From positions 11,489 through 75,488 of the forward strand of contig PMWW01000146.1 of NCBI GenBank assembly GCA_003165795.1: a stretch of 64,000 bases of DNA, read 5' to 3'. The notes below the pieces were generated by a model, which had not been told where the DNA came from, searched no databases, and saw only the letters and a list, made by a program, of their open reading frames with translations. The stretch is from Acidobacteriaceae bacterium (GTDB lineage Bacteria; Acidobacteriota; Terriglobia; Terriglobales; Acidobacteriaceae). This document shows, piece by piece, positions 713 through 28,352 of this stretch (the first letter of the stretch is position 1; the number at the start of each line of letters is the position of its first letter). The position numbers and the translations under genes are program-made.

Positions 713-1618
713 TTACGCGTTCGCGTTAACCGGGAGGGCCCGCGCCACCTTAGCCATAGCCGTAATGTGGGCCGGAGTGCTCCCGCAGCAGCCACCGATA
801 ATGTTGGCGCCGGCTTGCACCAACTCGGCCACAAAGGAAGCCATGAGTTCGGGCGTCTCCTTGAATACCGTCTTGCCGTCTTCCATGACCGGCGGACCGG
901 CGTTGGCATGGATAAGAATCGGTACGTTGGGCGCGGCAGCCCGCATTTGCCGCGTGATTTCGATCATGTTGGAAATGCCATTACCGCAGTTGGCGCCTAC
1001 GATATCGGCTCCCGCCGCTGCCGCTACCTTGGCCGCGCGATCAGGCTTGACTCCCATCATGGTACGGAAACCCTTGATGCCCGGCTCGAAGGCGAAGGTG
1101 CAGATCACCGGCAGTTTGGTATTTTCCTTGGTGGCTTTGATGGCCTGCTCGGCTTCCACCACAGAGGACATAGTCTCTATGCAAATGGCGTCAGCCCCAC
1201 CTTCGGCCAGAGCAACTACCTGGGCCTTGAACGCTTCATACAACTGCTCGGCGGTGGTATCGCCGCCCTCCTCGATCACGATGTGCCCGGTTGGACCCAC
1301 CGACGCGGCTACATAGCCCTTGTCGCCCATGGCATGTTTCGCCAGCTTAGCGGCGGCAACGTTGATTTCATGGACCTTGTCGGACAGTCCATAACCCTTC
1401 AGTTTGAACGAAGTGGCGCCGAACGAATTAGTTTCCACTACGTCGGAACCGGCGGTTACGTACGCCTCGGCGATTTCTTCTACCTCTTTGGGATGGCTGA
1501 CGCACCACGATTCGGGGCATTCCCCTCCTTCCATCCCTTTGGCAAACAGGAAGGTACCCATAGCTCCATCGGAGATAAGGATCTCGCCTGCCTTGATACG
1601 TTCCAAAAGACTCTTCAC
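713..1618 (-). CDS. Stand-alone homocysteine S-methyltransferase domain protein (MetH N-terminal/BHMT-type, Zn-thiol methyltransferase)
   Basis: 301 aa. ISDGAMGT...ETNSFGA...DAICIETM...GANCGNG...IGGCCGSTPAHI match the S-methyl_trans TIM barrel with its Zn-binding Cys (C...CC). The start overlaps the RACo stop by 4 nt (1615-1618). Confidence 0.8.
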   Translation of the reverse strand: MKSLLERIKAGEILISDGAMGTFLFAKGMEGGECPESWCVSHPKEVEEIAEAYVTAGSDVVETNSFGATSFKLKGYGLSDKVHEINVAAAKLAKHAMGDKGYVAASVGPTGHIVIEEGGDTTAEQLYEAFKAQVVALAEGGADAICIETMSSVVEAEQAIKATKENTKLPVICTFAFEPGIKGFRTMMGVKPDRAAKVAAAAGADIVGANCGNGISNMIEITRQMRAAAPNVPILIHANAGPPVMEDGKTVFKETPELMASFVAELVQAGANIIGGCCGSTPAHITAMAKVARALPVNANA

Positions 1619-3483
1619 GATGCTTTCCTCCTTCGACTTTCAAATGTTTCTGCTACCGTTGGAAACTGCTCCAAGTCCGTGTGGGGAAGGAATAGAGCCT
1701 TCACATAGCTGTCCATGTATTGCGGATTGGAGCTCATATCGACATAGGTTATGCGGGCGGCAATCTCCGCCAGACGACGGCGATGCTCCCGCGACAGCAG
1801 CGCAATATACGCGCCAGTAAGAGAAGAATTCCCGATGTAACGGAACCGGTCCAGCGGCAAGTCGGGCAGCATGCCGATGAAAACCGCGTCCGCGATCCGC
1901 ATGTATCGCCCAAAGCCGCCCGCGATGTAGACGCGAGCGACAGCGTCCCAAGTGAGGCCGACGTTTTCGAGAACCAGTGAGCAGGCGGCATAGATCGCCG
2001 CTTTGGTGCGGATCAGGTTCTCCAAGTCAGCCTCGGTGATTACCAGGTCCTTGCCGGTCCGGGTTTGCTCGGCAGTGGCCAACCGGAACGCGCGGCGACT
2101 GTCTTGTTGCACGATCCGGCCCGTGCCGGGTGACTCGAAGAAGCGGCCGGAGCGGTCCACAACTTCCTGCCGAAACAGTTCGCCCACCAGCGAGATGAGA
2201 CCGGATCCGCAGATGCCTGCCGGCTTGCCGCCACCGATCACGGAGAACTCTAAGCGGGCCCCGTTGTCGCCAATAGCCACCCGCTCGATGGCGCCTTCGG
2301 CCGCCCGCATTCCGCACTTAATTCCCGCTCCCTCGAACGCCGGACCCGCCGAGCAGGCGCAAGCCACCATCCAATCCGCATTGCCGATTACGATCTCGCC
2401 ATTGGTACCAATATCCATGAAGAGAAAGACATCGTGGGCGTTGGTAGACAAGTCGGTGCATAACAGGCCGGAAGTAATGTCGCCTCCGACGTAGCTGCCC
2501 ACGCCGGGGGCACAAACCACGATGGCCTGCGGATCGATATTTAGGCCGACGTCCTGGGCGCGCAGTTCGGGAACGGAGTTCACCGTCGGGACGTAAGGCG
2601 CCTCCCGGATGTAGCGCGGAGGCAAACCGAGCAGCAGGTGAGTCATGGTCGTGTTGCCGGCAACAAAGGCCGCGCGAATGTTCTGCGGCTCAATCGAAAT
2701 TTCGCCGGCCAGCTGCCGGACCAGACCATTGATGGTTTCCAGCACCAGGCCGCGGAGTTCCTCCAGGCGTTCCGGATTGCGGGCGTAGTCGATGCGACTG
2801 ATTACGTCCGACCCCCGCCGGATCTGCAGATTGTAGGAAGTCTGCGTGGCCAGCAACGATCCGTCATCCAAGTCAATCAGTTGCACCGCCACGGTGGTGG
2901 TGCCGATATCGACGGCCAAACCGAGCGGATGCTCGGGGCTGTCCCCCGCTTGCACATGGCGGACGCGCAACCCCGATGCGGATTCCTCGACGCCAACCGT
3001 GATGTCGCCATTGGCGGCCCGAACCGCTTCCGCCAACTCGCGCAGCACCGTGAGCTCGCTAGTGATGGGAGCAGGCCCGCCATTACGGCTCAATTCGCGG
3101 GTGAGGCGTGTCCAATCGCTATAGTGCTCCTCGATGGAAGCCGGCGGCACGGCCAGCCGCTGGTTTCGGTACAGCGGCGTGAGGCGGTCCCGGTCCGGCA
3201 GCAGCTTGGGGTCGATCAGGGAATGGCTGTCGCCCAGCACCCGTAATCCCTGTTGGCTGCGATCGGGCAGCCGTACCACAATGTCTGACACGACTTTGGT
3301 CTGGCAAGCCAGAACGGAGGTCGGGCGTCCCTCCACTTCTACGGAACACAACCCGCAGGAACCTTCGCCTCCACACGGCAACTCCAAGTCGAGGATGCCG
3401 GCACGCAACGCTGCCTCGTGGATCAGCGTTCCGGCCGGCACCTCGGCCACGACGTTGGCGGGCTGGAAGCGAACCGATGGCAT
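1615..3483 (-). CDS. RACo/AcsV-type ATP-dependent reductive activator of corrinoid proteins (2Fe-2S ferredoxin domain plus ASKHA ATPase domain)
   Basis: 622 aa. N-terminal plant-type ferredoxin motif LPCGGEGSCGLCSV...LACQ. ASKHA phosphate motifs AVDIGTTTVAV and FMDIGTNGEIVIG. Lies 4 nt downstream of acsC. Confidence 0.85.
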   Translation of the reverse strand: MPSVRFQPANVVAEVPAGTLIHEAALRAGILDLELPCGGEGSCGLCSVEVEGRPTSVLACQTKVVSDIVVRLPDRSQQGLRVLGDSHSLIDPKLLPDRDRLTPLYRNQRLAVPPASIEEHYSDWTRLTRELSRNGGPAPITSELTVLRELAEAVRAANGDITVGVEESASGLRVRHVQAGDSPEHPLGLAVDIGTTTVAVQLIDLDDGSLLATQTSYNLQIRRGSDVISRIDYARNPERLEELRGLVLETINGLVRQLAGEISIEPQNIRAAFVAGNTTMTHLLLGLPPRYIREAPYVPTVNSVPELRAQDVGLNIDPQAIVVCAPGVGSYVGGDITSGLLCTDLSTNAHDVFLFMDIGTNGEIVIGNADWMVACACSAGPAFEGAGIKCGMRAAEGAIERVAIGDNGARLEFSVIGGGKPAGICGSGLISLVGELFRQEVVDRSGRFFESPGTGRIVQQDSRRAFRLATAEQTRTGKDLVITEADLENLIRTKAAIYAACSLVLENVGLTWDAVARVYIAGGFGRYMRIADAVFIGMLPDLPLDRFRYIGNSSLTGAYIALLSREHRRRLAEIAARITYVDMSSNPQYMDSYVKALFLPHTDLEQFPTVAETFESRRRKAS

Positions 3484-3487: not shown

Positions 3488-4828
3488 TTACCGTGCGTCT
3501 TGGATCTTCATGTACGAGCCGAGATCCGAGGCCTCACCCGGACCAACCAGCACCTCCCAGCCGGGCAAGCCTTCCTCGATTTCGCCGCTGATTTGCGAGA
3601 CATAGCCGGGAATGATGATGCGGTGTTTTCCCTGGTCGGCAAGGTCAGTGGCCTTCACCGCATTAGCCACCTTTTCGCCCGAGAACTTGCCCGCGGCCCA
3701 TCCCGTTAGCACGCTCATGCCTTCGGTATCCACGACGAGTAAGTTCGCCGGGATGCCCGAGTTTTCAATTTCGCCGGAGACCAGGAAGTAGGTCAGGGAG
3801 AAATTGGTGGTGACCAGCACCGGAGAGTCCTTGCCGGTCTCGCCGATGGGATAGACCTTGGGATCGACCTGAATCGGCTTCTGCGGGTCGGTGTAGATGT
3901 TCTGCCGCAGCATCATCAAAGGCAGCAGGACTTCGAGCTTGATGCGGTCGAGCACTACGATGGACCCGTATTTGCACAGGAAAGTCGAGGCATCGGCAAC
4001 CACCGACGCGTCGTCCAGCGCGGTCACGAAGTTAATGATGGGATAGCCCAGCGGCTCGAAGGAATTCTTCAGCGCCGCCTTGCGGATGAGGGTGTTGTAC
4101 TGCAAGGTGGCTGCGGGATTGTCGGCCGGCAGGTCGAGCACGATGTCCTTCAGCCCCAGAGCGGCCAACTTGGTGGTCAGGGCCACCAACTCGTCGATGG
4201 TGGCCGCGCGGGCCACAATCGGCGCATCATACTTCAACGCCAAGGCCGCGACGGCATCGGCGTTAGCCGGGGTGGCGGCGTGAATCAAGGGCCGCTGGCC
4301 TGGCAACTCTTTCAGCCCGGCTTCCAGCGCGTCCAGGTTCGAGCTCCGCAGGATAATGCCCATGCCGGTAGAACCCGCTGCGGTCTTCACCAGATCGACG
4401 AAGGGTTTGACCTCTTCGCTGAAGTTGTCGACCAGCACCAGGTTGACGCGCAGTTGCTCGCCTACCCGTTCCAGGCAATAGTCCCGCACCTCGGCGATGC
4501 CGTGGCCACAATTGGAGAGCGGCTCATTGTCGGCAAAAGCGATGGCGATGGCGGTGGGGTGAACAAAGGTTTTGTCGTGGCGGAACATGACCGTCTCGTT
4601 GCCGATCAGGACTTCGCGTTCCGGCGGTCCGATCTTCACCAGGCGGATGGGCGGCTTGCTGGCCGCCCCGACAGTTTTGATGGCTTCTTCCGAAGCGTAA
4701 GGACAAGCCGCAAGTTCGGCGTTCTTGGCGGCCAGCTTCATGGCGAAAGCCATGCAGGTGGGTACACCACACTCGCCGCAGTTGGTCTTGGGCAGCAGCT
4801 TAAAGATTTGTAAACCAGTCATTGCCAT
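3488..4828 (-). CDS. acsC: Corrinoid iron-sulfur protein large subunit (AcsC/CdhE)
   Basis: 446 aa. N-terminal 4Fe-4S motif KTNCGECGVPTCMAFAMKLA...ACPY followed by TIM-barrel and corrinoid-binding parts. Lies 12 nt downstream of the acsB-acsD ORF. Confidence 0.9.
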   Translation of the reverse strand: MAMTGLQIFKLLPKTNCGECGVPTCMAFAMKLAAKNAELAACPYASEEAIKTVGAASKPPIRLVKIGPPEREVLIGNETVMFRHDKTFVHPTAIAIAFADNEPLSNCGHGIAEVRDYCLERVGEQLRVNLVLVDNFSEEVKPFVDLVKTAAGSTGMGIILRSSNLDALEAGLKELPGQRPLIHAATPANADAVAALALKYDAPIVARAATIDELVALTTKLAALGLKDIVLDLPADNPAATLQYNTLIRKAALKNSFEPLGYPIINFVTALDDASVVADASTFLCKYGSIVVLDRIKLEVLLPLMMLRQNIYTDPQKPIQVDPKVYPIGETGKDSPVLVTTNFSLTYFLVSGEIENSGIPANLLVVDTEGMSVLTGWAAGKFSGEKVANAVKATDLADQGKHRIIIPGYVSQISGEIEEGLPGWEVLVGPGEASDLGSYMKIQDAR

Positions 4829-4840: not shown

Positions 4841-7800
4841 TCACTTACCAGAGCACATCATTTCGTCAATCTTGCGCTTGAGGGTGCGAGCAGCCAGCGG
4901 GTGGTAAACCACCAGCAGGTCCGCTCCCGCATTCAGGTAACACGCCGCCGTGGCGATCTCCAGCAGGGCTTCGCGCTCGTCTTCGCTTCCCCACAGGGGG
5001 AAGTCCTTACGTGCGGCCCGGCTCTCCTTCACCTTCGACACTTCAAAGCCGGAGTTCACCATCATGGGCATGGCCAGCATCGGATCGCCGGTAAAGGCCG
5101 AGGAGCGAATGCGTTCCATCACCGAGTAGGTGTATTCCAAGCCGTAGCCCACGGAGCTGGTCAGGGGATCGACGAGAATGTGGTCGGGTTGTACGCCCAT
5201 GGTGGTAAGCAGGATGTTGAGCTGCTTGCACATGTTGACGTCGATGGGAGTCTGCGCCACTACGCAGTGGCCGTAAGCCATGACGGTGGCGGCGATGGTC
5301 TTGTAGTTGTCGGTTTCCACCCAGTTCAACAGCAGGTTTTCTCCGGCAAAGGTGGAAGCGATGTGCTTCATCACGGAGTTGTTCTTTTCGAAGTGGCTGC
5401 AACCGGTAACGATTATCGGTACCCCCACCGCGCCCAGAATGTCCTTCACGATGTCGCCGGCCGCTTCCGCAGACATGTCGCCATTGTCAGGATGGCAGGT
5501 CGCCAGGCGGACACTGATGATTTCCGCACCCAGCTTCTCCACCAGATGGCGGGCCATGGCCTTCGGGTCCTTGAGCAGGTCTCCATAAGCGTTGCGCAGG
5601 AGATCAGGATACGACTTCGGCGGGCTGTCCAACACCTCCATGGCAATCACGGGTTTGTGACCCACGTTGCCCTCATAGTGGCGGAAGGGCAATACCTCAG
5701 CCCCGCCCAGGACGACCGACGAAGTGCGGGTCCCGCTGCCGCCCAGAGTGATGGTGCGGACGGCGACATTGGCTTTGTCCGGAACCACGGTCACTGACTT
5801 CGGCAACACGATGGCCGCCGAAGTGATGGGCCGTTCCACGCCTTCTGGTGGCGGCGCGGGCTTGGACGGGCGCGGCTTAACTTCGGCCGCTTTGGTTGGG
5901 GCGGCACTGGAGGCGGTGATCTGGGCTTCCAATTCCGCTTCGGTCGGCAGGCAGCTCGGACAGCTGTCCGTGGCAGGCACGGCGGCGGCCGAGGCCGAAG
6001 CTAACATGCCGGTTTGCATCAGCAGCATGTTGGCGCCGGCGTGCAGCAAGTGCATGGCAGTCGAGGCTTGCAGGACCGCCATCTGCTGCATCGGCGTCAT
6101 TCCCGGTTGAATCTCGGTGGCGGGAGGAGCGCTGCGCAGCTGTTCCAGTAGGCTGATAAGGGCCCCCATACCGTCATTACTTGGCGGAATGGGCGGTGCC
6201 GCTTGCCCGGCGGACGGCGCCGCAGCCGGGGACTTGGCCACGGGAGGCTTGGTACCCGTTGTACTGGCGGCGATGGTCGTCGTCGGCGTCGCAGCCGGAG
6301 GTTCGGCCACCGCTACGGCGGTATCGGCGACGGTGGTGGTCGAGGCCCCTCCACCCGAGGCTGCAGCTTGTACCACGGCGCCGCGGGCAGCGTCGACGGC
6401 GGCAGCTTCCTCTGACGGAGTGGTAATGTCCCACATTGTCAGAGCAGGGTGGCTAACCTTCTCCATGAAGGCCTGCACCGAGGTGATATCGGTACCGTTG
6501 GTCTCGTCGGCGATCAGGTCGGTGAAGTTTTCGACGCCAAAGGTCTTGCCGACTTTGTCGAGATCTTCCCGCAGAAAGTCCTTGAGGTCTTTGGGCATCC
6601 AGACAATGCGCTTGTGGCCGCCCTCGGCGGAGATGAACTTACGGCTGGTGATGTAGGCCTTGCCTACGCCGACGAATCCCGGTACCTGCTGACCGCCGCC
6701 GGCCGTGTTCGCTAGGGTGGAAAACTTCATCCCAGCGGGCGTTTCGCCCAGGTATTCGCGATTCACGATCATGACCCCGTTGACTTCCGGCATCAAGGCC
6801 ACGATGGCCTCGAAGCAGCCGCAACTGGTCATGGGATCTTCCAGCAGCGAGTAAGCGTTGAAGCGGGCCAGCGTCTGCTTGGAATTGGCGTAAACGTAAT
6901 CGTTGATGTTGGCCCACTGCCCGCGCACGGGATCGATGCACTCGCCTTTGATCAGCGGCTGATTGGGGCCGGTAGGATCGATCTCGTAGGCCGCCTTGCC
7001 GTCCAGCCAGTTGTAGGCGCCGCACAATCCCAGCCGTTCCGGGGTGATGACGCAAACATGGTTGGGAGCGAAGCTCTGACAGAGCAGGCAGGAGTAGAAG
7101 GTATCGACGCTCTCGTCGGTAAGCGACTCCATGCGTTGATTGCGGGCGCGATAGGAGTGGCGGGCGACGTCGATCCGCTCGGTTACATCTTTGGCGTCGG
7201 TGAACAGTGTCACCTGCACCTTGTCCACGATGGCGGGATAGTCGTTCAGGAACTTGGCATGCAGGATCTCGCCCAGGTGACGGATCTTGAAGCCCTTGTC
7301 CTTAGCGCCCTTGCTGATACGGATCCAGTTGATGTCGCGCTGACCCATGTGCCAGATACCTTCGGCGCCATTGATCAAGTGATGGATCTGGCGTTCGAGA
7401 ATCGGCTCGAAGTCAGGCTGCATTTTGCGCCCGGCAACTTCCACCCAAATGCCGATGGGCAGTGCGGGCAGCTCTTTGCTGTCGGGGTCGACTACAACAT
7501 CGTCGATTTCGGGGCCGACCACGGTGATCTTGCCGTCTTCCACCTCGGTGATATCCAGCGTGGTGACGTACTCGAAGCCCGGCGTCTTGTTGCCGCCGAA
7601 CTCGACGTAGGTTTGCTCCTTGCGGATGCGCTCGCCTTCGAAGGCGGCGCCAAACGCCACCGGGATGGGCACCTTGGCGACTTTGATCTTGCAGCCGCGG
7701 ACTTCCAGGCACTTCTCCACGATGTGGTCGATGGGCACGTTGGAGACAACATGCTCGTAGGTACAAATGCCGGTGGGCAGGATCTGCGGAATGTCAGTAT

Positions 7801-8617
7801 CGGCAATGGTGGGAAAGCCGTAACTGATCGCGCCCGCGGCGGCGGCGTATTTCTCTTCGGTCACTTCGCCTAGCGCCATAACGAAGGCGAAAGTGCGGTT
7901 CTTATTGTATTTAAGATTGCGTGCGTAATCGCCCGGCTTGACTCCGCCGAAGCTGAGGGCCACGCGGTTGGCAAATCCCAAGGCATAGACCGCTGCCGAG
8001 ATCTCCTTACCGAAGGGCACCAGCCGGGTATCCCAACCTAGTTCAACCTCCGCCTCCGCCAACTGCTCGGAGAAAGATGTGCCGTGACTATGCCCGGCCA
8101 TGAAGACGTAAAGGTTCTTCTCTTGCAACTCGCGGGCGATGCGGACGGCGTGCTCGACCGACGGTGCGGCGCCCACGATGGCAGCGAAGCCGGGGGCGGA
8201 GCCGTCGACAAACTCGACACCGCGTTCGCGAATGATCACGTCATTGGCTGCTCCCAGCCAGATGCCGTTGACCGGATTGGGGCCGATGAGATATTTGCAA
8301 GCCTCGATAATTTCGAAGGCGAACAGAGTGGCGATACCCGAATCGAGGGTGCCACCCAGGTAAGGTAACCAGTTATTGTCGCTGGGTACGGCCGGCAGCA
8401 GCCGGTTGCACTCATCGAGAATTTTCTGCATGTCCGAGAGCCGGTCCACTCGTTCGCCCAACAGCGAGTAAATGACCGGCAGGGAGTAAGCGGTGTCTGG
8501 AAAGCCCACTTCACAATCGCTGCCTTTGGCCGCGATGGCTTTTGCCAGGTAGTCTTCCGCGTCGCGCACAATCTGGTGGGCGCCGCGGATTGCCGACGAT
8601 GCGATGATTTTGCTCAT
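4841..8617 (-). CDS. acsB: Fused acetyl-CoA synthase (AcsB) and CFeSP small subunit (AcsD) joined by a low-complexity linker
   Basis: 1258 aa uninterrupted ORF. Residues 1-735 (nt about 6412-8617) are ACS, with the A-cluster motifs SCLLCQSFAPNHVCVITPERLGLCGA and MTSCGCFEAIV. Residues about 740-930 (nt about 5820-6400) are an Ala/Pro/Thr/Met/Gln-rich linker. The last about 320 aa (nt 4841 to about 5820) look like AcsD/CdhD (...VIAMEVLD...IISVRLATCHPD...VPIIVTGCSH...VDPLTSSVGYGLEY...). Confidence 0.85.
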   Translation of the reverse strand: MSKIIASSAIRGAHQIVRDAEDYLAKAIAAKGSDCEVGFPDTAYSLPVIYSLLGERVDRLSDMQKILDECNRLLPAVPSDNNWLPYLGGTLDSGIATLFAFEIIEACKYLIGPNPVNGIWLGAANDVIIRERGVEFVDGSAPGFAAIVGAAPSVEHAVRIARELQEKNLYVFMAGHSHGTSFSEQLAEAEVELGWDTRLVPFGKEISAAVYALGFANRVALSFGGVKPGDYARNLKYNKNRTFAFVMALGEVTEEKYAAAAGAISYGFPTIADTDIPQILPTGICTYEHVVSNVPIDHIVEKCLEVRGCKIKVAKVPIPVAFGAAFEGERIRKEQTYVEFGGNKTPGFEYVTTLDITEVEDGKITVVGPEIDDVVVDPDSKELPALPIGIWVEVAGRKMQPDFEPILERQIHHLINGAEGIWHMGQRDINWIRISKGAKDKGFKIRHLGEILHAKFLNDYPAIVDKVQVTLFTDAKDVTERIDVARHSYRARNQRMESLTDESVDTFYSCLLCQSFAPNHVCVITPERLGLCGAYNWLDGKAAYEIDPTGPNQPLIKGECIDPVRGQWANINDYVYANSKQTLARFNAYSLLEDPMTSCGCFEAIVALMPEVNGVMIVNREYLGETPAGMKFSTLANTAGGGQQVPGFVGVGKAYITSRKFISAEGGHKRIVWMPKDLKDFLREDLDKVGKTFGVENFTDLIADETNGTDITSVQAFMEKVSHPALTMWDITTPSEEAAAVDAARGAVVQAAASGGGASTTTVADTAVAVAEPPAATPTTTIAASTTGTKPPVAKSPAAAPSAGQAAPPIPPSNDGMGALISLLEQLRSAPPATEIQPGMTPMQQMAVLQASTAMHLLHAGANMLLMQTGMLASASAAAVPATDSCPSCLPTEAELEAQITASSAAPTKAAEVKPRPSKPAPPPEGVERPITSAAIVLPKSVTVVPDKANVAVRTITLGGSGTRTSSVVLGGAEVLPFRHYEGNVGHKPVIAMEVLDSPPKSYPDLLRNAYGDLLKDPKAMARHLVEKLGAEIISVRLATCHPDNGDMSAEAAGDIVKDILGAVGVPIIVTGCSHFEKNNSVMKHIASTFAGENLLLNWVETDNYKTIAATVMAYGHCVVAQTPIDVNMCKQLNILLTTMGVQPDHILVDPLTSSVGYGLEYTYSVMERIRSSAFTGDPMLAMPMMVNSGFEVSKVKESRAARKDFPLWGSEDEREALLEIATAACYLNAGADLLVVYHPLAARTLKRKIDEMMCSGK

Positions 8618-10563
8618 TGCAGTTCGCGCCTCGATTTCATGTCGTACATCTTGCGTTCCTTTTGAGTATTGATGTGGAGTGCATCGCGCTTGCGCTCGAT
8701 GTGGGCTAGCATCTTGTCGGCTGCGACTACCGGATCAGGCTCCCACTCGAAGCGTCCGCCGGTAATGCTTTCCATCTCACTGCACAGCAGGTCGTGGACG
8801 TTCTTGCTGCCCTCGACGTAGAGAGGATGGCCGAGCACGACATACATTCCGCTAGCTACGAAGTAATGGCCGATAGCGACGGCCTTCTCGCTCATCCATT
8901 CCGGCGCGGCGCCGGCCACGGGCAGGTCGGCGATGTCATCGCCCAGACCGCCTTCGGCTACCAGGTTAGTGGCTGCCATCAGGATGCGGCTGTTGTCGAC
9001 GCACGAGCCCATGTGCAAGACGGGAGGAATGCCGACCGCCTCGCAGACTTCGCGCAAGCTGTCGCCGGCCTGGGCCAGCGCGGCTTCCGGTGTCAGCAGC
9101 CCCGCCTTGGCACAGGCGATGGCGGCGCACCCGGTTTGCAGCACCAGCACGTTACGCTTGATCAATTCCTGGGCCAGCCTGACGTGGCCCTGATCGGCCA
9201 CTACCTTGGGATTGCTGCATCCGATGATGCCGGCCACGCCGCGAATGCGGCCATCGATGATGGCATCGTTCAGCGGACGGAAAGTACTGCGGAAGCGGCC
9301 GCCCAGCATGTGAAAGATGGTTTCGTTGGAGAAGCCGGCCACCAGTTCCATTGACTCGTTGGGAATGTGGACGCGTTGCGGATCGCGATTTTCGAAGTTG
9401 TCGATGGCCTTGCGAATCAGCTCGCTGGCTTGCTCGTAACCGGTGTTCGAGTGGAACGTGATCTGCTCGGCTTCGGCGGTGTGGGCGATCTCCGAGGTGC
9501 TGACCAGTTGGGTGTGGAAGCACTTGGAGACTTGCGCCAGCGATGGCATCACGCACTGCACATCGATCACCATGACTTCTACTGCACCGGTAAGAATGGC
9601 CAGCTCCTGTTGCAGGAAGTTGCCCACGATGGGCAGCCCATGGCGCATCAGAACTTCGTTGGCGGTACAGCAGATGCCGGCAACATTGATTCCCTCGGCG
9701 CCCTTGGACTTCGCGTAATCGATCAACTCCTGGTCCCCGGCGGCCACGGCCAGCATCTCTGACAATGTGGGTTCGTGTCCGTGGACGATGATGTTGACTT
9801 TGTTTCCAGCCAGCACGCCCAGGTTCACCCGGCTGCGCACCGGCTTGGGAGTGCCGAAGAGAATGTCTGACACTGTGGTAGCGATGGCCGAGCCTACCCA
9901 GCCGTCAGCCAGGCTGCACTTTAATCCACCCATGATCAGATGGCGATAGTCGTGGTCAACGCCCATGTTGGTGCGATGCATCAGCTCCACCACCGCGGAG
10001 TCGATGCCATTGGGATTGATGTTTAGCTTGTTCCACACCGCCTGGCGTTTTTCCGGGGCCAGCTTCAGGGTGGCGTTGGGCTCTTCCGACCAGGCGAATT
10101 GGGTCAGAAAGAAGTCCGCCAGATCGCTGGCGATGGTCAGGTCGTCTTTGCCTTCGGTAGCAATCTCGAAGAAACGCGCCGCCTCGTGCAAGCGCAGTGG
10201 CTCGACGATTTTGTAGTCGCCGCCTTTGCCCTGCGACACCGCCTTGAGGGTGCGCACCAGCATGCGGCCATGGTCGGAGTGAGCGGCAGTACCGGCGGCA
10301 ATCTCACGCAGCAGGTTGCGCGCAGTAATAGTATCGGCGTCGGCGCCGCAAATGCCGAGGTGGGCTTTGGGGGTGATGCGGCAAGGGCCCATGTGACACA
10401 GCCGGCAGCAAACGCCGTCTGTGCCGAACTTACACTGGGGTTTTTGCAGCTCATAGCGGTCGAAGACCGTACTTATCTCGGCTGCACCCGCAATGCTTAC
10501 CATATCGATTGTTGCTGGGTCCGTCGAAACCGGTAACCCTGCTTTTCGACCGGTGGTCGCCAT
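8614..10563 (-). CDS. acsA: Ni-Fe carbon monoxide dehydrogenase catalytic subunit (CooS/AcsA)
   Basis: The track ORF 8614-10761 carries a 66-aa Arg-rich extension. The likely start is the internal ATG at 10561-10563 (MATTGRKAG...), which overlaps the cooC stop as ATGA. CODH motifs CKFGTDGVCCRLCHMGPCRI, plus IVHGHE and CTANE regions. The stop overlaps the acsB start (8614-8617). Confidence 0.9.
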   Translation of the reverse strand: MATTGRKAGLPVSTDPATIDMVSIAGAAEISTVFDRYELQKPQCKFGTDGVCCRLCHMGPCRITPKAHLGICGADADTITARNLLREIAAGTAAHSDHGRMLVRTLKAVSQGKGGDYKIVEPLRLHEAARFFEIATEGKDDLTIASDLADFFLTQFAWSEEPNATLKLAPEKRQAVWNKLNINPNGIDSAVVELMHRTNMGVDHDYRHLIMGGLKCSLADGWVGSAIATTVSDILFGTPKPVRSRVNLGVLAGNKVNIIVHGHEPTLSEMLAVAAGDQELIDYAKSKGAEGINVAGICCTANEVLMRHGLPIVGNFLQQELAILTGAVEVMVIDVQCVMPSLAQVSKCFHTQLVSTSEIAHTAEAEQITFHSNTGYEQASELIRKAIDNFENRDPQRVHIPNESMELVAGFSNETIFHMLGGRFRSTFRPLNDAIIDGRIRGVAGIIGCSNPKVVADQGHVRLAQELIKRNVLVLQTGCAAIACAKAGLLTPEAALAQAGDSLREVCEAVGIPPVLHMGSCVDNSRILMAATNLVAEGGLGDDIADLPVAGAAPEWMSEKAVAIGHYFVASGMYVVLGHPLYVEGSKNVHDLLCSEMESITGGRFEWEPDPVVAADKMLAHIERKRDALHINTQKERKMYDMKSRRELQ

Positions 10564-11330
10564 CAGTTTTTCTCCTGTTGATTGGTAAATAACTTGGCTA
10601 ATAAATCGTTCATGGCTATGCGCGCCGGGGAGCCCGGCGCAATCGTGGAAACCGGCACGCCGTCGGCATCGAGGGCGGCAACGTCCTGGTCCAGTGGAAT
10701 GCTGGCCAGCAAAGTAAGTCCTGTAGCTTTGACGGCCTCGGCAATAGCCTCGGGCAGGCATCCTCCGGGCACGCGATTGACGATCAGGCCGCGTTGTTTG
10801 GTAGGCAGGGCGACTTCATCGGCCAGCGCCGAGATACGTCCCGCGGTCCTAATTCCCCGCACCGTACAGTCGGAAACAATCAGCAGATAATCTACGGAGA
10901 GCAAGGTGCGGCGGGAGATATGCTCCAAGCCAGCTTCGCTGTCGATGACGATGTTGCGGTAGTTGCTGGCCAGGCGGTCCAGCACCTCACGCAATACATT
11001 ATTGGCAAAGCAGTAACAACCCTGGCCTTCGGGCCGGCCCATCACGATCAGGTCATAGCCCTTCTGTTCTACCAGAGCTTCCTGCACGCGCAGGTCGAGA
11101 AACTCTTGCTTGGAGACGCCTTTCAGCGCGGTTGCTTCCTTGCGGGCGCTTTCGCGAATGCCGCCCACGGTTGCGCAATAGGCAATGCCCATCGCCTCGT
11201 TCAGGTTGGCATTGGAGTCGGCATCGACCGCCAGCACCGGCGACTCGCCGTGCGTCGCCAGCCAGCTCAGGGTGAGAGCCGCCAGCGTTGTCTTCCCTAC
11301 CCCACCTTTTCCTGTCATTGCCAAAATCAT
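10563..11330 (-). CDS. cooC: CooC-type Ni-insertion ATPase (CODH maturation)
   Basis: 255 aa. Deviant Walker A GKGGVGKTT, CxC metal motif GQGCYCF, MinD/ParA fold. Confidence 0.85.
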   Translation of the reverse strand: MILAMTGKGGVGKTTLAALTLSWLATHGESPVLAVDADSNANLNEAMGIAYCATVGGIRESARKEATALKGVSKQEFLDLRVQEALVEQKGYDLIVMGRPEGQGCYCFANNVLREVLDRLASNYRNIVIDSEAGLEHISRRTLLSVDYLLIVSDCTVRGIRTAGRISALADEVALPTKQRGLIVNRVPGGCLPEAIAEAVKATGLTLLASIPLDQDVAALDADGVPVSTIAPGSPARIAMNDLLAKLFTNQQEKN

Positions 11331-11347
11331 GACTACCCATCCTCGGC

Positions 11348-11409
11348 GGTGGGTGGATGATGAAGAGAACCAGGAGCGCGCTCGGCTCCCACTCGGTCAC
11401 CCACCCACC
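11348..11409 (-). promoter_or_regulatory. Intercistronic inverted repeat (GGTGGGTGG ... CCACCCACC) in the 89-nt gap between the MetE-like gene and cooC
   Basis: 9-nt perfect arms at 11348-11356 and 11401-11409. A GAGCGCGCTC palindrome lies between them. This is the only sizeable gap inside the otherwise overlapping operon. Confidence 0.4.
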
Positions 11410-11419
11410 GCAGTTGCTC

Positions 11420-12499
11420 TTAAGCGCCCGTACCGATCAAGGCTGGGGCGCCAATTTCCTGCCGCAGCTTGGTGCTCATTTGGTGCAGCGTTTGGAAAAC
11501 CAATTCAGCGTCGGCGACCGGCAGCGATCCCGTGCCACAAGACGGCGTGATGAACGATTGCCGGCAAATGAGCTGCGTATCCAACCCCGTTATCTTGGCC
11601 AGCTTCTCGATCAGTGCGCAAAACTTGGCGACCAGCGAATCGACCGTCTGGGCATGGATTTTGGCGCTGTTCGTGGGCACGATTCCGACCGCCAGCGCCT
11701 TTCCAGCTTTAAGGTGCGCCTTGAAGTTGTCGGGATAGAGCAGAATGGTTTCGCCATAATCAAAGGCATCAAAGTTAATGATGTCCACACCCGCATCCAT
11801 CAGGATCGGCCACTCGGTATTGCCGCAGCAATGCACTCCCGACAGGGCTCCCTCGGCATGGATCGCCTCAATTACTTCACCCAGTTTGGCCACGGTGTCG
11901 TCGCGGGTCACGCTGACATAAGTGGAGGAGCCGAAGGCGGACAGGATGGGCTCGTCTACAAAGCAAATGACTTTCTCGGCGTAGGGCTGGAACTTGCGAA
12001 TCTGCCAGCGACATTTCATGGTCAATCCCTTGACCACCACGTCGACGAATTCCGGATTGTAGTAAATCGCCCGTTTTTTCTCGTCCACAATGCTGAGGCC
12101 GACGCTGAGCGGGCCCGTGGTCTGTACCTTCACGAAGGGACGCTTGATGCCGGAAGCTTTGAGGGCCGCCTCCATGGCATAAATGCCTTTCGAGAAGTCA
12201 GGGGTGATGCGAAAAGCCTCGAGGTCGTCGGCGCAGAACTTTTCGTAAAACTCCGCCAGGTCCTGGCTGGTGTCGCCGGTGGTGTCGAAGTACATGCGGC
12301 CCTTCACCGGGTCGAGGACCACCCGCGGAATGCCTTCGCTGTACTGGATTTCCATCTGTTCATGAAGCCCGAAGGCCGGCAGCTGCGGCCAGATCGGCGC
12401 GTTGGGGATGTTCTCTAGAACGACTTTGACGGCCTGCTCTGGATCTTTGTGAGGCAAGCTGCCGATTGCGGTAGCGGTACAGCAGGGCTCGAAACTCAT
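11420..12499 (-). CDS. Core-MetE-like (Meth_synt_2, single barrel) Zn-dependent methyltransferase; candidate folate-independent methionine synthase (Mes-like)
   Basis: 359 aa. MetE C-terminal-barrel motifs TAIGSLPHKD, FVDEPIL, GVHCCGN (His-x-Cys) and ITPSCGTG. No N-terminal folate-binding barrel. The start overlaps the stop of the upstream CooC-like gene (12496-12499). Confidence 0.7.
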   Translation of the reverse strand: MSFEPCCTATAIGSLPHKDPEQAVKVVLENIPNAPIWPQLPAFGLHEQMEIQYSEGIPRVVLDPVKGRMYFDTTGDTSQDLAEFYEKFCADDLEAFRITPDFSKGIYAMEAALKASGIKRPFVKVQTTGPLSVGLSIVDEKKRAIYYNPEFVDVVVKGLTMKCRWQIRKFQPYAEKVICFVDEPILSAFGSSTYVSVTRDDTVAKLGEVIEAIHAEGALSGVHCCGNTEWPILMDAGVDIINFDAFDYGETILLYPDNFKAHLKAGKALAVGIVPTNSAKIHAQTVDSLVAKFCALIEKLAKITGLDTQLICRQSFITPSCGTGSLPVADAELVFQTLHQMSTKLRQEIGAPALIGTGA

Positions 12500-13296
12500 A
12501 ACACGCTCTCTTTCTCGGTGCAGTACGACTGCAATGTTTTCTGAAGCGATCGGAATGGATTGAGTAAATCCGGATAGCCCAGGTCGACCAGCGCTACACC
12601 CTGGCGGTCAGCCCGAGCTATGCGTACATCGAGGGGAATGGTGCCGAGCAGGTGCTCGGCCCCGAACTCGGAGGCGATCCAGCGGCTATCTTCTTCCGGA
12701 TCGGCGGTCTTGTTGAGCACCACGCCGAAGCGTCCGATGCCCAGATCGGCGGACATCTGGCGGACCCGCTCGGCGGTCTCCACGCTGCGCTTGCCCGGCT
12801 CGACCACCACCATCATTAAGTCCACACCCATGGCTGTGCCGCGCCCCAGGTGCTCGATGCCGGCTTCCATGTCGAGGATCACGATCTCGCCGTGGCGCAG
12901 TACCAGATGCGAGACCAGGCTTTTCAGCAGCACGCTCTCCGGACAGGCGCAGCCGCCGAGAGCGTGCTCCACCGCGCCCAGCACCAGCAGGTCGACTCCC
13001 TTGTAATGGACGGCGTATTTCTCGGCGATATCGGCAACTTCAGGATTGATCTTGAACATCTGCCCGAACTGCTTGACTTTGGCGCCGGTGCGCTCTTCGA
13101 TCAGCTTGCGTTCGGTGGAAATGGTGTGGACTTGAGAACGGAGTTCGGAAGGTAAGCCGATGGCGGAAGCCAGATTTGCGTCGGGGTCGGCGTCAACTGC
13201 TAATACCCGGTGACCGTCGGCCGCATACAGCCTGGCCAGGGTTCCCGCCACGGTGGACTTTCCGACTCCGCCTTTGCCTGAGATTGCAAGTTTCAT
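12496..13296 (-). CDS. Second CooC/AcsF-type Ni-insertion ATPase
   Basis: 266 aa. GKGGVGKST Walker A, CxC motif LGGCACPES. The start overlaps the GntR stop (13293-13296). Confidence 0.85.
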   Translation of the reverse strand: MKLAISGKGGVGKSTVAGTLARLYAADGHRVLAVDADPDANLASAIGLPSELRSQVHTISTERKLIEERTGAKVKQFGQMFKINPEVADIAEKYAVHYKGVDLLVLGAVEHALGGCACPESVLLKSLVSHLVLRHGEIVILDMEAGIEHLGRGTAMGVDLMMVVVEPGKRSVETAERVRQMSADLGIGRFGVVLNKTADPEEDSRWIASEFGAEHLLGTIPLDVRIARADRQGVALVDLGYPDLLNPFRSLQKTLQSYCTEKESVL

Positions 13297-14129
13297 GGTT
13301 CGAGCCTCGATCGAGCAATGTGTATGCCGTACTGCTTGCGGCGGCGCCGGGACGACACCGAAGTGTTCTTCCGGGCGCTCTCCTGGTCGCGGATGACCTG
13401 TTCAACGGCCAGCATGGCGAAGCCGACGATTTCTTCGGAAGAACGCCGCGCCGCCAGTGGATTGCGCTGTTCGATGGCCTCGGTCAGCTTGCGGTACTCT
13501 TCCAGTTCGAGGGCCACGGATGCCGGCAAGAGCAAGGTGTAGGAAAGAGCCACCCGATAAGGGGCGTGGATGGTGGCATTCAATTGCCGGAACAACGGAT
13601 TGTGCGAGGCGGCAACCACCGCAGTGTGATACTGCAGGTCCGCGTCGATGGCCCCTTCCAGGTCCTGAGCTGCCAGGATCTCCAGCCGCCGCGACAGACA
13701 CTGACGAATGCAGGCAATCTCCTCCTGATCGGCGCGCAGCGCGGCGAATCCGGAAGCAATCGGTTCAATCGCCAAGCGGACTTCGCACAGGTCGCGCAGG
13801 AAGCGCGCATCCGGTTTCAGCTCCGACTGCCAGGCGAGAATGTCGGGATCGAGTTGGTTCCAGTCGGTGCGGGGCCGGGCGCGCGTCCCGGAGCGGGGAC
13901 GCACCTGCACCATGCCCTTGTTTTCTAAAACCTTGACCGCTTCGCGCAGGATGCTGCGGCTTACCCCCACCTGTTTACACAATTCCGCTTCGTTGGGGAA
14001 GGCGATCTGTTGCTCGTTCCGCTCCGCTTGGATGACCTGCAGGGCCAAGGCCCGGGTCACCCGGCTGTGCAGACTTTCGGTGGTGTCGAGCTGCGCGAAT
14101 AATGTAGCGGGTCCCTTCATCTCAGTCAT
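13293..14129 (-). CDS. GntR-family transcriptional regulator with FCD (FadR C-terminal) ligand domain
   Basis: 278 aa. Winged helix-turn-helix ...FPNEAELCKQVGVSRSILREAVKVLENKGMVQVRPRSGT... followed by an all-helical FCD-like domain. First gene of the acs operon. Confidence 0.85.
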   Translation of the reverse strand: MTEMKGPATLFAQLDTTESLHSRVTRALALQVIQAERNEQQIAFPNEAELCKQVGVSRSILREAVKVLENKGMVQVRPRSGTRARPRTDWNQLDPDILAWQSELKPDARFLRDLCEVRLAIEPIASGFAALRADQEEIACIRQCLSRRLEILAAQDLEGAIDADLQYHTAVVAASHNPLFRQLNATIHAPYRVALSYTLLLPASVALELEEYRKLTEAIEQRNPLAARRSSEEIVGFAMLAVEQVIRDQESARKNTSVSSRRRRKQYGIHIARSRLEP

Positions 14130-17300: not shown

Positions 17301-18096
17301 TTAAGTTTCGGGTGCGTCCGTAGATGCTGCCGTGGAAGTCGTTGGTGCCGCTCTTAGTGGCAATGTTGATTTGCGCTCCCGACGAGCGGCCCGTGTCGGC
17401 GTTGAAGCCGGCGGTGCTCACGCGGAACTCCTGCACCGAGTCGAGGGTGGAGCGCAGCACTCCGGTGAAAGCGTAGCCGCGCACCTGGTCATTGTTGTCC
17501 AAGCCGTCCAAGGTGGAGTTGTTTTGATCGGACCGGGCCCCGGCGGCGCTGCCGCTGCGGCTGTCGTGACTTTGATCGTTGTGCAGGCCGAGATACAAAA
17601 CTCCGGGCTGCAGGCTGAGCAGGTCCGGAATGTCGCCCTCGACCGGCAGCGCCAGAATGGTGGCGCTGTCAAAGGCATTGCCCATGGTGGCGTCGGTGGA
17701 GTTCAGAGAAGGCGCCTGGCCGCTGACACTGACAGTGGTGGCCGCGGCTTCCACCGGCAGGGAAAAATTGAGGGTCAACGGCTGATTGATCAGCAGCTCA
17801 ATCGACTGCGATTGCTTAGCAAATCCCGGGGCCTCGACCGCAATGGCGTACTTCCCGGGAGGAAGCTGCTGAAACTGATACGTTCCGTTGTTGCCGGCAA
17901 CGTGAGTTTCCGTAAAACCATTTTCGCTGTTGACCAATGAAACTCTTGCCGAGGCAATCACCGCTCCTGAGGGATCGGAAATCGTTCCTCGCAAAGATGT
18001 GCTTGGGCTTTGCGCTGCGGCGAATGGTGCGGACAACAAAACAAGGACGCCCAGGATGGATGTTAATGCGAAGCGGGGCCGTGCTGTCAAAACCAA
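14323..18096 (-). CDS. Large TonB-dependent receptor with N-terminal carboxypeptidase-regulatory-like (CarboxypepD_reg) domain
   Basis: 1257 aa. Signal peptide, then SLRGTISDPSGAVIASARVSLVN...GTYQFQQLPPGKYAI (CarboxypepD_reg), a plug-like segment, a long beta-barrel and a C-terminal ...LALRFSF. Starts 3 nt after the btuD stop. Confidence 0.8.
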   Translation of the reverse strand: MVLTARPRFALTSILGVLVLLSAPFAAAQSPSTSLRGTISDPSGAVIASARVSLVNSENGFTETHVAGNNGTYQFQQLPPGKYAIAVEAPGFAKQSQSIELLINQPLTLNFSLPVEAAATTVSVSGQAPSLNSTDATMGNAFDSATILALPVEGDIPDLLSLQPGVLYLGLHNDQSHDSRSGSAAGARSDQNNSTLDGLDNNDQVRGYAFTGVLRSTLDSVQEFRVSTAGFNADTGRSSGAQINIATKSGTNDFHGSIYGRTRNLITPANDWFNKQAELAQGLPNVPGTLDRNAYGASLGGPIKKNKLFFFTTYEGEKIDENQQMTMIVPTASLRAGEIKYPSTSNEATQIVTLNAAQIASMDPNCTGTGTCPWGPGADPYSLAAFKQYPLPNGYSAGDGLNTASYTWSAPDPASLNTYITRVDYALSNRNWLFIRGNLQRDSSLGVPQFPGQPASSNNSSDSKGLAVGLNSAISPTLMNSLRYSYIRQGYSSYGIGQGSYANFYGMSTIDAQTRTTIVDVPVQNLVDDLTWTHSRHTIQFGANYRLIHNQNQSNALSYNSAVTNSYALVDAGIVGVGGSFDPTVFGFPSVDNSFAGSYNFSMTNLAGLLDYVTSQSNYQVSANGKTGTLLPPGAMIDRDFKNNEFEYYAQDSWRISPNLTVNYGLRHTLLQTPYEVNGQQVQPTTDLYQWFETRGAQAALGNSVQPYISFAPSGQARGLQPYWPMQKANLAPHLSFAYSPNVGQGFWHKLFGNPGDSVLRAGYGKYYDHFGESIVNLFDQYGSYGLSDSITNPTNVLTPDTSPRYTGAHNIPDLTGTPEQVVSYPALSPTDPLTTGFAITHGIDSQMQTPYSHVVNVSWQRQLPDGFVLEAAYLGRFGRHQLQQIDLAQPLDLVDPKSGQDYFSAATQLSKDGYAGQTTVAPIPYFEDMFPDAATGGMSATQNIYNSIWKYNLGNETGALYALDILCYPGCGGQTGRFWPTQFASMYTWASIGDSNYNGGQLVLRHAMRHGMQMELSYTYSKSLDMGSDDERTVYSSSTGSTVGSSFSAILNAWNPGLSYGPSDYDIRHLITASWVVDLPFGKGKLLGSHSSAGWDRIIGGWQLSGVGRWTSGLPFSVISGAGWGTNWLEKSNMIETGAIQTGTYIGANGAPNVFSNPAEALASLQNPYPGEAGERNNFRGDGYFGIDARLAKNWKLSERWGMQFAWDVYNVTNSVRFDVNPLNSLQNLTTSGSFGVYGATLTTPRVQQLALRFSF

Positions 18097-18099
18097 TCC

Positions 18100-18885
18100 T
18101 TACCAGACTTGCGCCAATCCATCCGAGGGTGGTGAGACACAGTATTGAGCCAGGTCTGACTGGCTGACGCAAAATGTGCGTCCCAGCAGGTCGGGCCGCA
18201 TAACCTCCGCGGTTGGACCTGCGATCCACGCCGGCTCCGGGGTGAGCATGATGACGGAGGAGAAGTTCTCGGCCACCAGATGGAGGTCGTGGACGGCGGC
18301 GATGATGGTGATCCCACGCTTATTGAGCCGCCGCAGCAGGGCGATCAACTCGATCTGGCGGCCGACGTCGAGATGCTGAGTGGGCTCGTCGAGCAGCATA
18401 AGCTTGGATTGCTGGGCCAGGCCGATGGCGATTTTCACTCGCTGGCGCTCGCCGCCCGACAGCTGCGAGAAAGGCCGATCACGCAGTCCCACGATGTCCA
18501 CCGCTTCCATCGCGCTCTCGATGGCCTCACGGTCCCGCGTCGTGCCGGCTCCGAACAGCGGCAGATAAGGCACCCGGCCTTGGGCGACGATCTCTTCCAC
18601 GCGAAAGTTGAAGGGCAGCTCAAGTTCCTGCGGGACCAGAGCAATCGAGCGCGGAAGGTGTTGCCGCGACCAGTCCGCCAGTGGCTTGCCTTGCAGCAAG
18701 ACGTTGCCGCTGGCGGGCTGCAGCAATCGCGAGGCCAGCTTCAGCATGGTGGTCTTGCCCACGCCGTTGGGGCCCAGCAGGGCAACCATCTCTTGCGTCT
18801 CGATGGCGAAAGACAGGCGGTCCAGCAGAAGCCGCGAGCCGCGCGAGAACGAAACATTTTGGAATTCGAGAATGGTGGAGATCAT
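18100..18885 (-). CDS. btuD: ABC transporter ATP-binding protein, BtuD/FecE type
   Basis: 261 aa. Walker A GPNGVGKTT, signature LSGGERQRV, Walker B MLLDEPT. Adjacent to a FecCD permease. Confidence 0.8.
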   Translation of the reverse strand: MISTILEFQNVSFSRGSRLLLDRLSFAIETQEMVALLGPNGVGKTTMLKLASRLLQPASGNVLLQGKPLADWSRQHLPRSIALVPQELELPFNFRVEEIVAQGRVPYLPLFGAGTTRDREAIESAMEAVDIVGLRDRPFSQLSGGERQRVKIAIGLAQQSKLMLLDEPTQHLDVGRQIELIALLRRLNKRGITIIAAVHDLHLVAENFSSVIMLTPEPAWIAGPTAEVMRPDLLGRTFCVSQSDLAQYCVSPPSDGLAQVW

Positions 18886-25042: not shown

Positions 25043-25225
25043 AACTTCCCCCTCGGAAGTTCGTTAGGTTTTTCACCGGGCCGGTCTCCTGACTCAGGAC
25101 CCAACCTGTCACCTTCCCGCTGGGCGCAGTGGTTGTCGACAGTTGGTGCTTCGTCCTTTACAGTTGCGGGGCAGTGGCGGATTCTTACCGCGCTTCCCAT
25201 ACACCCTGTGAATTCAGTGGTTGTC
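25043..25225 (-). promoter_or_regulatory. Cobalamin riboswitch 1 with an RBS-sequestering helix, upstream of the btuB-like receptor
   Basis: The minus strand reads ...GGGAAGCGCGGTAAGAATCCGCCACTGCCCCGCAACTGTAAAGG...CCACTGCGCCCAGCGGGAAGGTGAC...AGTCAGGAGACCGGCC (B12 box). It is followed by AACTTCC-GAGGG-GGAAGTT abutting the ATG (25043-25061). Confidence 0.85.
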
Positions 25226-28040: not shown

Positions 28041-28164
28041 ACTTCATCCCGCGCACAAGTCACGTCTCGGACGGGAAAGCTCGTGCCGCAAATCTTCCAG
28101 AAGACCCTAGCGAGCAGGTCGTCAAGATGCCGATTGACCCTCCCATCGAGACCAAATCGGACAA

Positions 28165-28317: not shown

Positions 28318-28323
28318 ATTCCG

Positions 28324-28352
28324 GTTATAGCTCCCGGAAAATGCGGTGTCAA
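28324..28352 (-). promoter_or_regulatory. Sigma70-like promoter P1 (TTGACA-17-TATAAC) just upstream of riboswitch 2
   Basis: The minus strand reads TTGACA ccgcattttccgggagc TATAAC. The -35 is at 28347-28352 and the -10 at 28324-28329. Confidence 0.6.

Follow-up and report, generated by a model that had tools for sequence, protein, structure and literature searches.

A MesB-family core methionine synthase in the carbon monoxide dehydrogenase/acetyl-CoA synthase operon of an Acidobacteriaceae bacterium and its probable methyl donor

What does a single-barrel relative of methionine synthase do inside an operon for carbon monoxide dehydrogenase and acetyl-CoA synthase (CODH/ACS)? The question is raised by a protein of 359 amino acids (aa) encoded at 11420..12499 on the minus strand of a 64,000-nucleotide (nt) stretch of DNA from an Acidobacteriaceae bacterium (contig PMWW01000146.1). 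We call the whole stretch the window, and all positions refer to it. The translation of the gene, its homologues, the AlphaFold2 (AF2) fold, the catalytic residues and phmmer comparisons identify the product as a MesB-family core methionine synthase. This MesB-like protein probably takes a methyl group from the corrinoid iron-sulfur protein (CFeSP) encoded in its own operon and passes it to homocysteine.

The MesB-like protein and its relatives

The initial annotation of the window had placed an open reading frame (ORF) with MetE-type motifs at these positions. The ORF is real, with an ATG start, and it contains all four motifs (GSLPHKD, residues 13–19; FVDEPIL, 180–186; HCC, 223–225; PSCGTG, 319–324), but it reads on the minus strand; the plus-strand reading was ruled out by an internal stop. 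Two further claims held. The gene is translationally coupled to the upstream gene cooC1, whose stop overlaps its start by 4 nt (ATGA, within ...GTTATGAGT...), and it lies between two nickel-maturation ATPases, as both flanking genes are of the CooC/AcsF type (a deviant Walker A motif, GKGGVGK[ST], and a CxC motif). The MesB-like gene is certainly genuine, because a protein collection clustered at 90% contains 3424 homologues and the genomes of at least 80 species have a confirmed orthologue. The best 120 of these homologues are at least 69% identical to it, and nearly all are named 'hypothetical'.

A Pfam search with the protein at E ≤10 gave no match (neither PF01717 nor PF01208), and phmmer and profile searches of the PDB returned nothing useful and no MetE. 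These nulls mean that the family is highly divergent and nothing more. The sole NCBIfam match was to PRK00957 (archaeal methionine synthase, MesA) with 22.3 bits and E 6e-5; the cut-off of this model is 258 bits, so a MesA identity was rejected. A two-barrel MetE (PF01717/TIGR01371) was also rejected, given the single barrel and the lack of a Meth_synt_2 match. The AF2 model (pLDDT 80, pTM 0.86) is one (beta/alpha)8 barrel with no second one, which bears out the claim that the N-terminal barrel is missing. In MetE that barrel binds methyl-folate (Deobald 2020, PMC7005905). The top Foldseek matches of the model were the MetE structures 4ZTX, 1T7L and 3PPH (E 5e-8 to 1e-7; TM 0.55–0.58), and B. 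subtilis UroD (2inf) appeared at rank 6.

The active-site motifs can be followed from the protein to E. coli MetE: TAIGSLP corresponds to TTIGSFP (S433), VDEPIL to IDEPAL (D599), VHCC to HMCYC (H641/C643), TPSCG to NPDCG (C726), and DIINFD to DVITIE, with E665 replaced by D244. In hhalign, the KGxxTGP...IDEP stretch aligned to residues 546–605 of E. coli MetE with D182 on D599, and a URO-D-family protein gave nothing (probability 0.2%). From these alignments we propose H223, C225, D244 and C321 as zinc ligands and S14, E47 and D182 as homocysteine contacts, E47 being a candidate equivalent of Glu484 assigned by motif only. An exhaustive profile search yielded 2413 representatives at E ≤1e-3 and 525 at ≤1e-30. 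Among 136 representatives of the family, D244 and C321 were present in all, H223 in 135, C225 in 134, D182 in 132, E47 in 129 and S14 in 125; E183 was likewise invariant or nearly so. The homocysteine-binding residues are retained across the family, and together with the zinc set they are under strong purifying selection. The C-terminal barrel of MetE, the best structural match, shares the IGSxP, DEP, HxC and PxCG motifs with the MesB-like protein. The differences are an identity of only about 12%, the missing N-terminal barrel, and a fourth zinc ligand that is Asp and not Glu.

Asp in place of Glu665, giving an HCDC pattern, is the signature of MesB (Price 2021, PMC7857596). According to the same study, MesB proteins are single barrels of at most about 386 aa without the folate-side domain Met_synt_1. 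They carry zinc ligands HC(E/D)C in place of H641, C643, E665 and C726 of MetE, and equivalents of the homocysteine-binding Ser433 and Asp599 (Glu484 is variable). Their activity is that of a methylcob(III)alamin:homocysteine methyltransferase, inactive on methyl-tetrahydrofolate (methyl-THF). The protein studied here has 359 aa in one barrel, H223, C225, D244 and C321 in the zinc positions, S14 in IGSLP and D182 in VDEP. Its zinc ligands are spaced 2/19/77, compared with 2/19/76 in the D. mccartyi core-MetE (H215/C217/D236/C312), the family prototype characterised by Deobald 2020 (PMC7005905); the name MesB was given by Price 2021 (PMC7857596). The latter work also predicted CFeSP (CoFeSP in its terms) as the methyl donor, every MesB genome having AcsC/AcsD. 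In our case AcsC and AcsD are encoded in the operon of the gene itself, and the same is true of about 80 related loci.

Price 2021 assigned a protein to MesB if it reached 173 bits (130 bits as a looser cut) in phmmer against DET0516 of D. mccartyi. Our protein scored 264 bits with a Ca. Jettenia caeni protein (P0411; 40% identity, full length), 243 and 238 bits with two Methanomassiliicoccales proteins (about 36% identity), and 213–234 bits with four Dehalococcoidia/Dehalococcoidales proteins named 'methionine synthase' at NCBI (34–37% identity), which served as proxies for DET0516. A screen of about 540 proteins for the H215/C217/D236/C312 numbering of the characterised enzyme led to one Dehalococcoidia proxy (P0380), in which these positions agree exactly. 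The MesB carriers listed in Table S1 of Price 2021 are Brocadiales, Methanomassiliicoccales and Dehalococcoidales. Thus, the catalytic residues, their spacing and the scores to MesB-carrier taxa support the initial assignment to the Mes type and point to MesB. DUF1852 (MesX, the partner of MesD) was not found among the scanned ORFs of the window.

Clustering showed that the protein belongs to a tight clade whose members are at least 56% identical; a gap sets this clade apart from a large and diverse family of proteins of about 345 aa at 33–44% identity. The members of this broad family come from Ca. Jettenia, Scalinduaceae, Methanomassiliicoccales, Anaerolineae, Chloroflexi and Dehalococcoidia, and some of them are named 'methionine synthase' at NCBI. 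Other family members adjoin an S-adenosylmethionine (AdoMet) synthetase gene, in MtnA-lactamase-mesB-AdoMet synthetase clusters, a neighbourhood that fits a role in the methionine cycle and resembles the D. mccartyi locus. The PRK00957 methionine synthase model was matched by 22 of 50 relatives, with weak MtbA or MtaA matches in three of the 50; PF01717 was matched by 4 of 52 family members, and PF01208 marginally by one of the 52 (E 0.004). The PF01208, hhalign, Foldseek and PRK00957 results all speak against a place within the MT2 or UroD clades. The closest characterised counterpart is the MesB of D. mccartyi (cbdbA481, DET0516; Deobald 2020, Price 2021). It is also a single barrel of about 345 aa without a folate domain, with a His-x-Cys...Asp...Cys zinc set and Ser and Asp homocysteine contacts, and its host likewise encodes AcsC/AcsD. 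In contrast, our protein falls in a separate subclade, at most about 44% identical to the rest. The D. mccartyi gene sits with AdoMet-cycle genes, and not in an acs operon, in an organism without CODH, whereas the operon studied here has a full CODH and an additional gene of the PF02574 family.

Conservation and composition of the operon

We compared the operon proteins of the window by tblastn with 80 loci, each taken with 10-kb flanks on both sides of the MesB-like gene. It turned out that the order cooC1-mesB-cooC2-acsA-acsB-acsD-acsC-RACo is kept in almost all of them, essentially in every one that is long enough. The operon occurs in about nine phyla: Acidobacteriota, Armatimonadota, NC10, Planctomycetota, Hydrogenedentota, Lentisphaerota, Verrucomicrobiota, Bacillota and Raymondbacteria. 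In Acidobacteriota it was seen in Korobacteraceae, Bryobacteraceae and Solibacteraceae. Complete or nearly complete genomes with the operon include OW818647.1, OY760504.1, OW818698.1 and CAVWRA010000006.1. Across phyla the MesB-like protein is 61–93% identical, which is comparable to AcsB and above CooC, AcsC and AcsD. A PF02574 gene is nearly always present in these loci, with 38–88% identity and a variable location: it follows RACo in Acidobacteria and Armatimonadota and adjoins the MesB-like gene in Bacillota, Lentisphaerota, Verrucomicrobiota, Hydrogenedentota and Planctomycetota.

Genes for AcsE (the methyl-THF:CFeSP methyltransferase, PF00809), MetF, MetE and MetH were not found in the window, and the 10 kb on either side of the MesB-like gene in the 80 loci revealed nothing AcsE-like. 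A tblastn search of the window and the loci with the pterin-binding domain of E. coli MetH, a weak query for a distant AcsE, gave only chance-level matches (E ≥0.35), mostly over acsC and acsD. All-against-all clustering of the unexplained ORFs in the loci revealed no recurrent AcsE-like gene.

All operon genes of the window lie on the minus strand. The first encodes a GntR/FCD-family transcription regulator (13293..14129; Pfam FCD and GntR), and its stop overlaps the start of cooC1 by 4 nt. A GntR/FCD gene also stands 5' of cooC1 in acidobacterial loci. The cooC1 gene (12496..13296) encodes a CooC/AcsF-type nickel-insertion ATPase of 266 aa (Pfam CbiA, AAA_31 and ParA; GKGGVGKS and CAC motifs). 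Downstream of the MesB-like gene, an 89-nt spacer (11331..11419) is followed by cooC2 (10563..11330), which encodes a second ATPase of this type identified by Pfam, with 255 aa and the motifs GKGGVGKT and CYC. AcsA, the catalytic subunit of Ni-CODH (8614..10563), matches TIGR01702 with 684 bits and the Prismane family. Its likely ATG start at 10563 overlaps the cooC2 stop in TGATG and has AGGAG upstream. The next product, of 1258 aa (4841..8617; Pfam CODH_A_N, CdhC, ACS_CODH_B_C and CdhD), is a fusion: a low-complexity linker of about 230 aa, rich in Ala, Pro and Thr, connects AcsB (acetyl-CoA synthase) with a small CFeSP subunit resembling AcsD/CdhD. It is followed by AcsC, the large CFeSP subunit (3488..4828; NF003195, 530 bits; Pfam CdhD and FeS), and by RACo/AcsV, the reductive activator of corrinoid proteins (1615..3483; Pfam RACo_C_ter, Raco_middle and Fer2; NF040756). 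The last gene (713..1618) encodes a stand-alone MetH-type homocysteine-binding domain of 301 aa (PF02574, E 5e-68). Its zinc cysteines are intact (NCG...GGCCG), and its top PDB match is the homocysteine domain of T. maritima MetH (151 bits). From these features, the product is a putative second homocysteine methyltransferase.

The initial annotation had described a full CODH in the operon, which is correct, and had placed the CFeSP four genes downstream. AcsC is indeed the fourth gene, since the order runs cooC2, acsA, acsB, acsC, RACo; the AcsD-like subunit sits in the third, fused to AcsB. The PF02574 gene and the absence of acsE had been overlooked.

The spacer between the MesB-like gene and cooC2 is filled by a hairpin (GCGGUGGGUGGGUGA...UCAUCCACCCACCGC; minimum free energy −46.4 kcal/mol, z −2.9). 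The stem recurs, with compensatory changes, in Korobacteraceae-like acidobacterial loci (L001–L019, L050 and L054). Possible roles are those of an attenuator or of an mRNA-stability element that splits the operon. Genes for corrinoid uptake and salvage flank the acs operon on both sides (TonB receptors, BtuF-like, CobU, CobQ, CobT, CobS, CobC, FecCD/ABC); at 1–650 on the minus strand there is also a partial CbiZ-like ORF. Three cobalamin riboswitches, at 25062–25223 (minus), 28161–28331 (minus) and 32376–32570 (plus), precede TonB-receptor, B12-salvage and other genes. The riboswitch-controlled B12 genes share the strand of the acs operon and stand immediately upstream of it. No S-adenosylmethionine or cobalamin riboswitch was found before the acs operon itself, the three in the window serving the B12 uptake and salvage genes. 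The acs operon is thus embedded in a corrinoid-acquisition island.

Methyl donor and direction of the transfer

The conserved gene order suggests how the MesB-like protein would work. Homocysteine activated by zinc would attack the methyl-Co(III) of CFeSP, and methionine and Co(I) would be formed without folate. The donor corrinoid protein would consist of AcsC and the AcsD domain fused to AcsB, and RACo would rescue the oxidised corrinoid cofactor and keep CFeSP active. CFeSP itself could be methylated by ACS through the cleavage of acetyl-CoA, with CODH disposing of CO; other corrinoid methyltransferases may be an alternative source of its methyl group. An origin of the methionine methyl from acetyl-CoA was proposed for Dehalococcoides (Price 2021, PMC7857596). 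The incomplete Wood-Ljungdahl pathway of Dehalococcoides (Zhuang 2014, as cited in PMC7857596 and PMC9324843) has the same components, ACS and CFeSP without AcsE and a methionine methyl proposed to come from acetyl-CoA; compared with it, the operon studied here additionally has CODH.

We infer the methyl donor, the reaction direction and the physiological methyl source from this genomic context. The CFeSP of the operon is the best-supported donor, because about 80 genomes from about nine phyla preserve the gene order. The initial annotation had proposed a Mes-type enzyme served by this CFeSP. The conservation of the operon agrees with its proposal, in which the choice of donor is still the conditional part. 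Several points weigh against our interpretation. The threshold of Price 2021 is exceeded only with proxies for DET0516. Active-site loops 50–52, 135–144 and 186–194 of the AF2 model have low confidence. The co-conserved PF02574 protein with its intact zinc cysteines could alone carry out the same transfer from methyl-corrinoid to homocysteine, which means that one of the two enzymes may differ in partner or direction. Finally, a complete CODH/ACS is a heavy investment for methionine alone, so the MesB-like protein may form a side branch of a wider one-carbon metabolism.

One explanation for the pair of enzymes is a division of labour. The PF02574 protein would serve the transfer from CFeSP to homocysteine, and the MesB-like protein would serve another corrinoid protein or another amino-acid thiol. 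PF02574 domains naturally use methyl-cobalamin, and the one in the operon keeps its zinc site. Stand-alone PF02574 proteins beside separate corrinoid proteins were proposed as methionine synthases (PMC9324843). These 'split MetH' systems follow the same logic, in which a corrinoid protein is teamed with an activase and a homocysteine methyltransferase, and the PF02574 gene of the operon is of that type; in contrast, the MesB-like protein has an unrelated fold, and the CFeSP of ACS, with its two subunits, takes the place of the corrinoid protein. That about 80 genomes keep two enzymes for one reaction does call for an explanation. One Acidobacteriaceae locus (L017:8377-18816) has GntR, cooC1 and an orthologue of the MesB-like gene (77% identity) without acs genes; downstream it encodes a cobalamin adenosyltransferase, CobQ, an MtaC-like corrinoid protein with a frameshift, the methanol:corrinoid methyltransferase MtaB, a RamA/RACo-like activase and DUF1638. 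This orthologue thus lies near MtaC, MtaB and RamA genes rather than acs genes. However, its C-terminus diverges after PVAD, and such a disrupted copy may be a remnant. The MesB-like protein is also better conserved than the PF02574 protein and is fixed beside the acs genes, whereas the PF02574 gene varies in position, and the homocysteine-binding residues of the MesB-like protein are intact. We consider such a division of labour unlikely.

The transfer could also run in the opposite direction. One of the homocysteine methyltransferases would then move a methyl group from methionine or another thioether to the Co(I) form of CFeSP, a reading that we regard as quite unlikely. A doubtful elaboration of it is that methyl groups of betaine, methanol or methoxy compounds reach ACS through methionine and not through methyl-THF. 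Such loading would fit the failure to find AcsE at any of the loci and the co-conservation of two homocysteine methyltransferases of unrelated folds with CFeSP. It would also fit the genes for donor-specific methyltransferases that adjoin some clusters. In a metagenome-assembled NC10 genome (L041:2-9142), two MttB-family genes and an OpuAC-type betaine ABC transporter stand just upstream of a cluster with genes for AraC and a homocysteine methyltransferase, cooC1, the MesB-like gene and acs genes. URO-D-family (MtaA-like) genes adjoin the cluster in six loci (L019, L032, L034, L052, L056 and L078), and in L078, from Verrucomicrobiota, such a gene is inserted between acsD and acsC (17460-18731). 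The MtaB and MtaC-like genes of L017 belong to the same kind of neighbours. As a separate observation, Rfam PYLIS_3 matches lie inside both MttB-family genes of the NC10 genome. Archaeal MtsA shows that the transfer from a thioether to Co(I) is chemically possible, but the demethylation of methionine by Co(I) is thermodynamically uphill. Moreover, it is a minority of loci that have such methyltransferase genes nearby, and AcsE may lie outside the 10 kb inspected on each side. The sole characterised member of the family acts in the methionine-forming direction (Deobald 2020, PMC7005905).

In its broadest form, loading by methionine would make the operon a folate-independent methyl-corrinoid hub, in which homocysteine/methionine replaces methyl-THF and one homocysteine methyltransferase loads the corrinoid protein while the other unloads it; we hold this to be rather improbable. 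The partners of the complete CODH/ACS-CFeSP without AcsE would then be only the MesB-like enzyme and the one resembling the homocysteine domain of MetH, which is just as improbable. If true, the hub would link betaine, methanol or methoxy methyl groups, or the cleavage of acetyl-CoA, to acetyl-CoA and methionine, and its hosts would be Acidobacteriota, Armatimonadota, Planctomycetota and further phyla that are not considered Wood-Ljungdahl organisms.

A function linked with the CooC ATPases, in maturation or as an accessory factor (such as in the metal handling of ACS/CODH) and not in methyl transfer, is very unlikely. The position between two cooC genes and the coupling to the first would suit it, as would two observations in other genomes. 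In a 91-kb ENA contig (P0056), CooC1 and the MesB-like protein are fused in frame into a product of 616 aa. In Methanomassiliicoccales (L088:8001-9830), a MesB-family gene is followed by a gene for a CooC2-like ATPase (40% identity to CooC2 of the window, CYC motif) with no adjacent CODH. However, the fusion is confined to a single contig, where it could be a true Rosetta-stone fusion or the result of a lost stop codon or an assembly error. A pair of CooC-type ATPases is to be expected in any case, with one serving the C-cluster and the other the A-cluster. Both the complete catalytic set for homocysteine and zinc, kept under strong purifying selection, and the AdoMet synthetase genes beside relatives of the protein argue against such a function.

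An MT2-type methylcobamide:thiol methyltransferase of the MtaA/MtbA/UroD clade, acting on a non-amino-acid thiol, is essentially excluded: such proteins (PF01208) share the superfold and the HxC...C zinc-thiolate chemistry with methyl-corrinoid proteins, UroD and the MtbA and MtaA models appear among the lower or weaker matches given above, and some NCBI records call relatives 'uroporphyrinogen decarboxylase/cobalamin-independent methionine synthase family', but no sequence or profile relation to the MesB-like protein was detected, MT2 enzymes lack the amino-acid-binding residues, and the IGSxP, DEP and PxCG motifs with the Ser/Glu/Asp set are of the MetE type, as is the model matched by 22 of the 50 relatives.

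Significance of the MesB-acs operon

The initial annotation had presented the position of the gene in an operon with a full CODH as more explicit genomic evidence for the link between Mes enzymes and CFeSP than loose co-occurrence. The link at the operon level is real, but its novelty was overstated. Price 2021 (PMC7857596) had already predicted the connection between MesB and CFeSP and shown mesB-acsC-acsD operons of methanogens (Fig 3B), so the earlier inference was correct and largely anticipated. Those operons also link the MesB gene to both CFeSP subunits; compared with them, the operon described here is bacterial, comprises the whole CODH/ACS, two CooC proteins, RACo and a GntR regulator, and occurs in about nine phyla, none of them a classical acetogen group. 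A literature search for a prior description of such an operon, in Acidobacteria or elsewhere, found none in the papers that it covered, only the general MesB-CFeSP prediction and split-MetH clusters. Four features thus appear unreported: a distinct conserved MesB subclade missed by Pfam and NCBIfam, its constant position within a complete bacterial CODH/ACS operon across about nine phyla outside the classical acetogens, the PF02574 gene co-conserved with the MesB-acs operon, and the lack of AcsE near it. Pfam and NCBIfam offer no model for the subclade, so its members are currently annotated as hypothetical.

These results give strong comparative-genomic support, in Bacteria, to the view that MesB draws the methyl group of methionine directly from the Wood-Ljungdahl pathway's corrinoid protein. 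The support rests on an operon conserved over about nine phyla rather than on a co-occurrence statistic. It fits the published prediction of the methyl source and widens its reach to many bacteria of soils and sediments. An acs operon of this type, without AcsE, is common in peat and soil Acidobacteria and in other non-acetogens. Metagenomic surveys may count it as 'Wood-Ljungdahl carbon fixation', while its real role may be in the metabolism of methionine and methyl groups.

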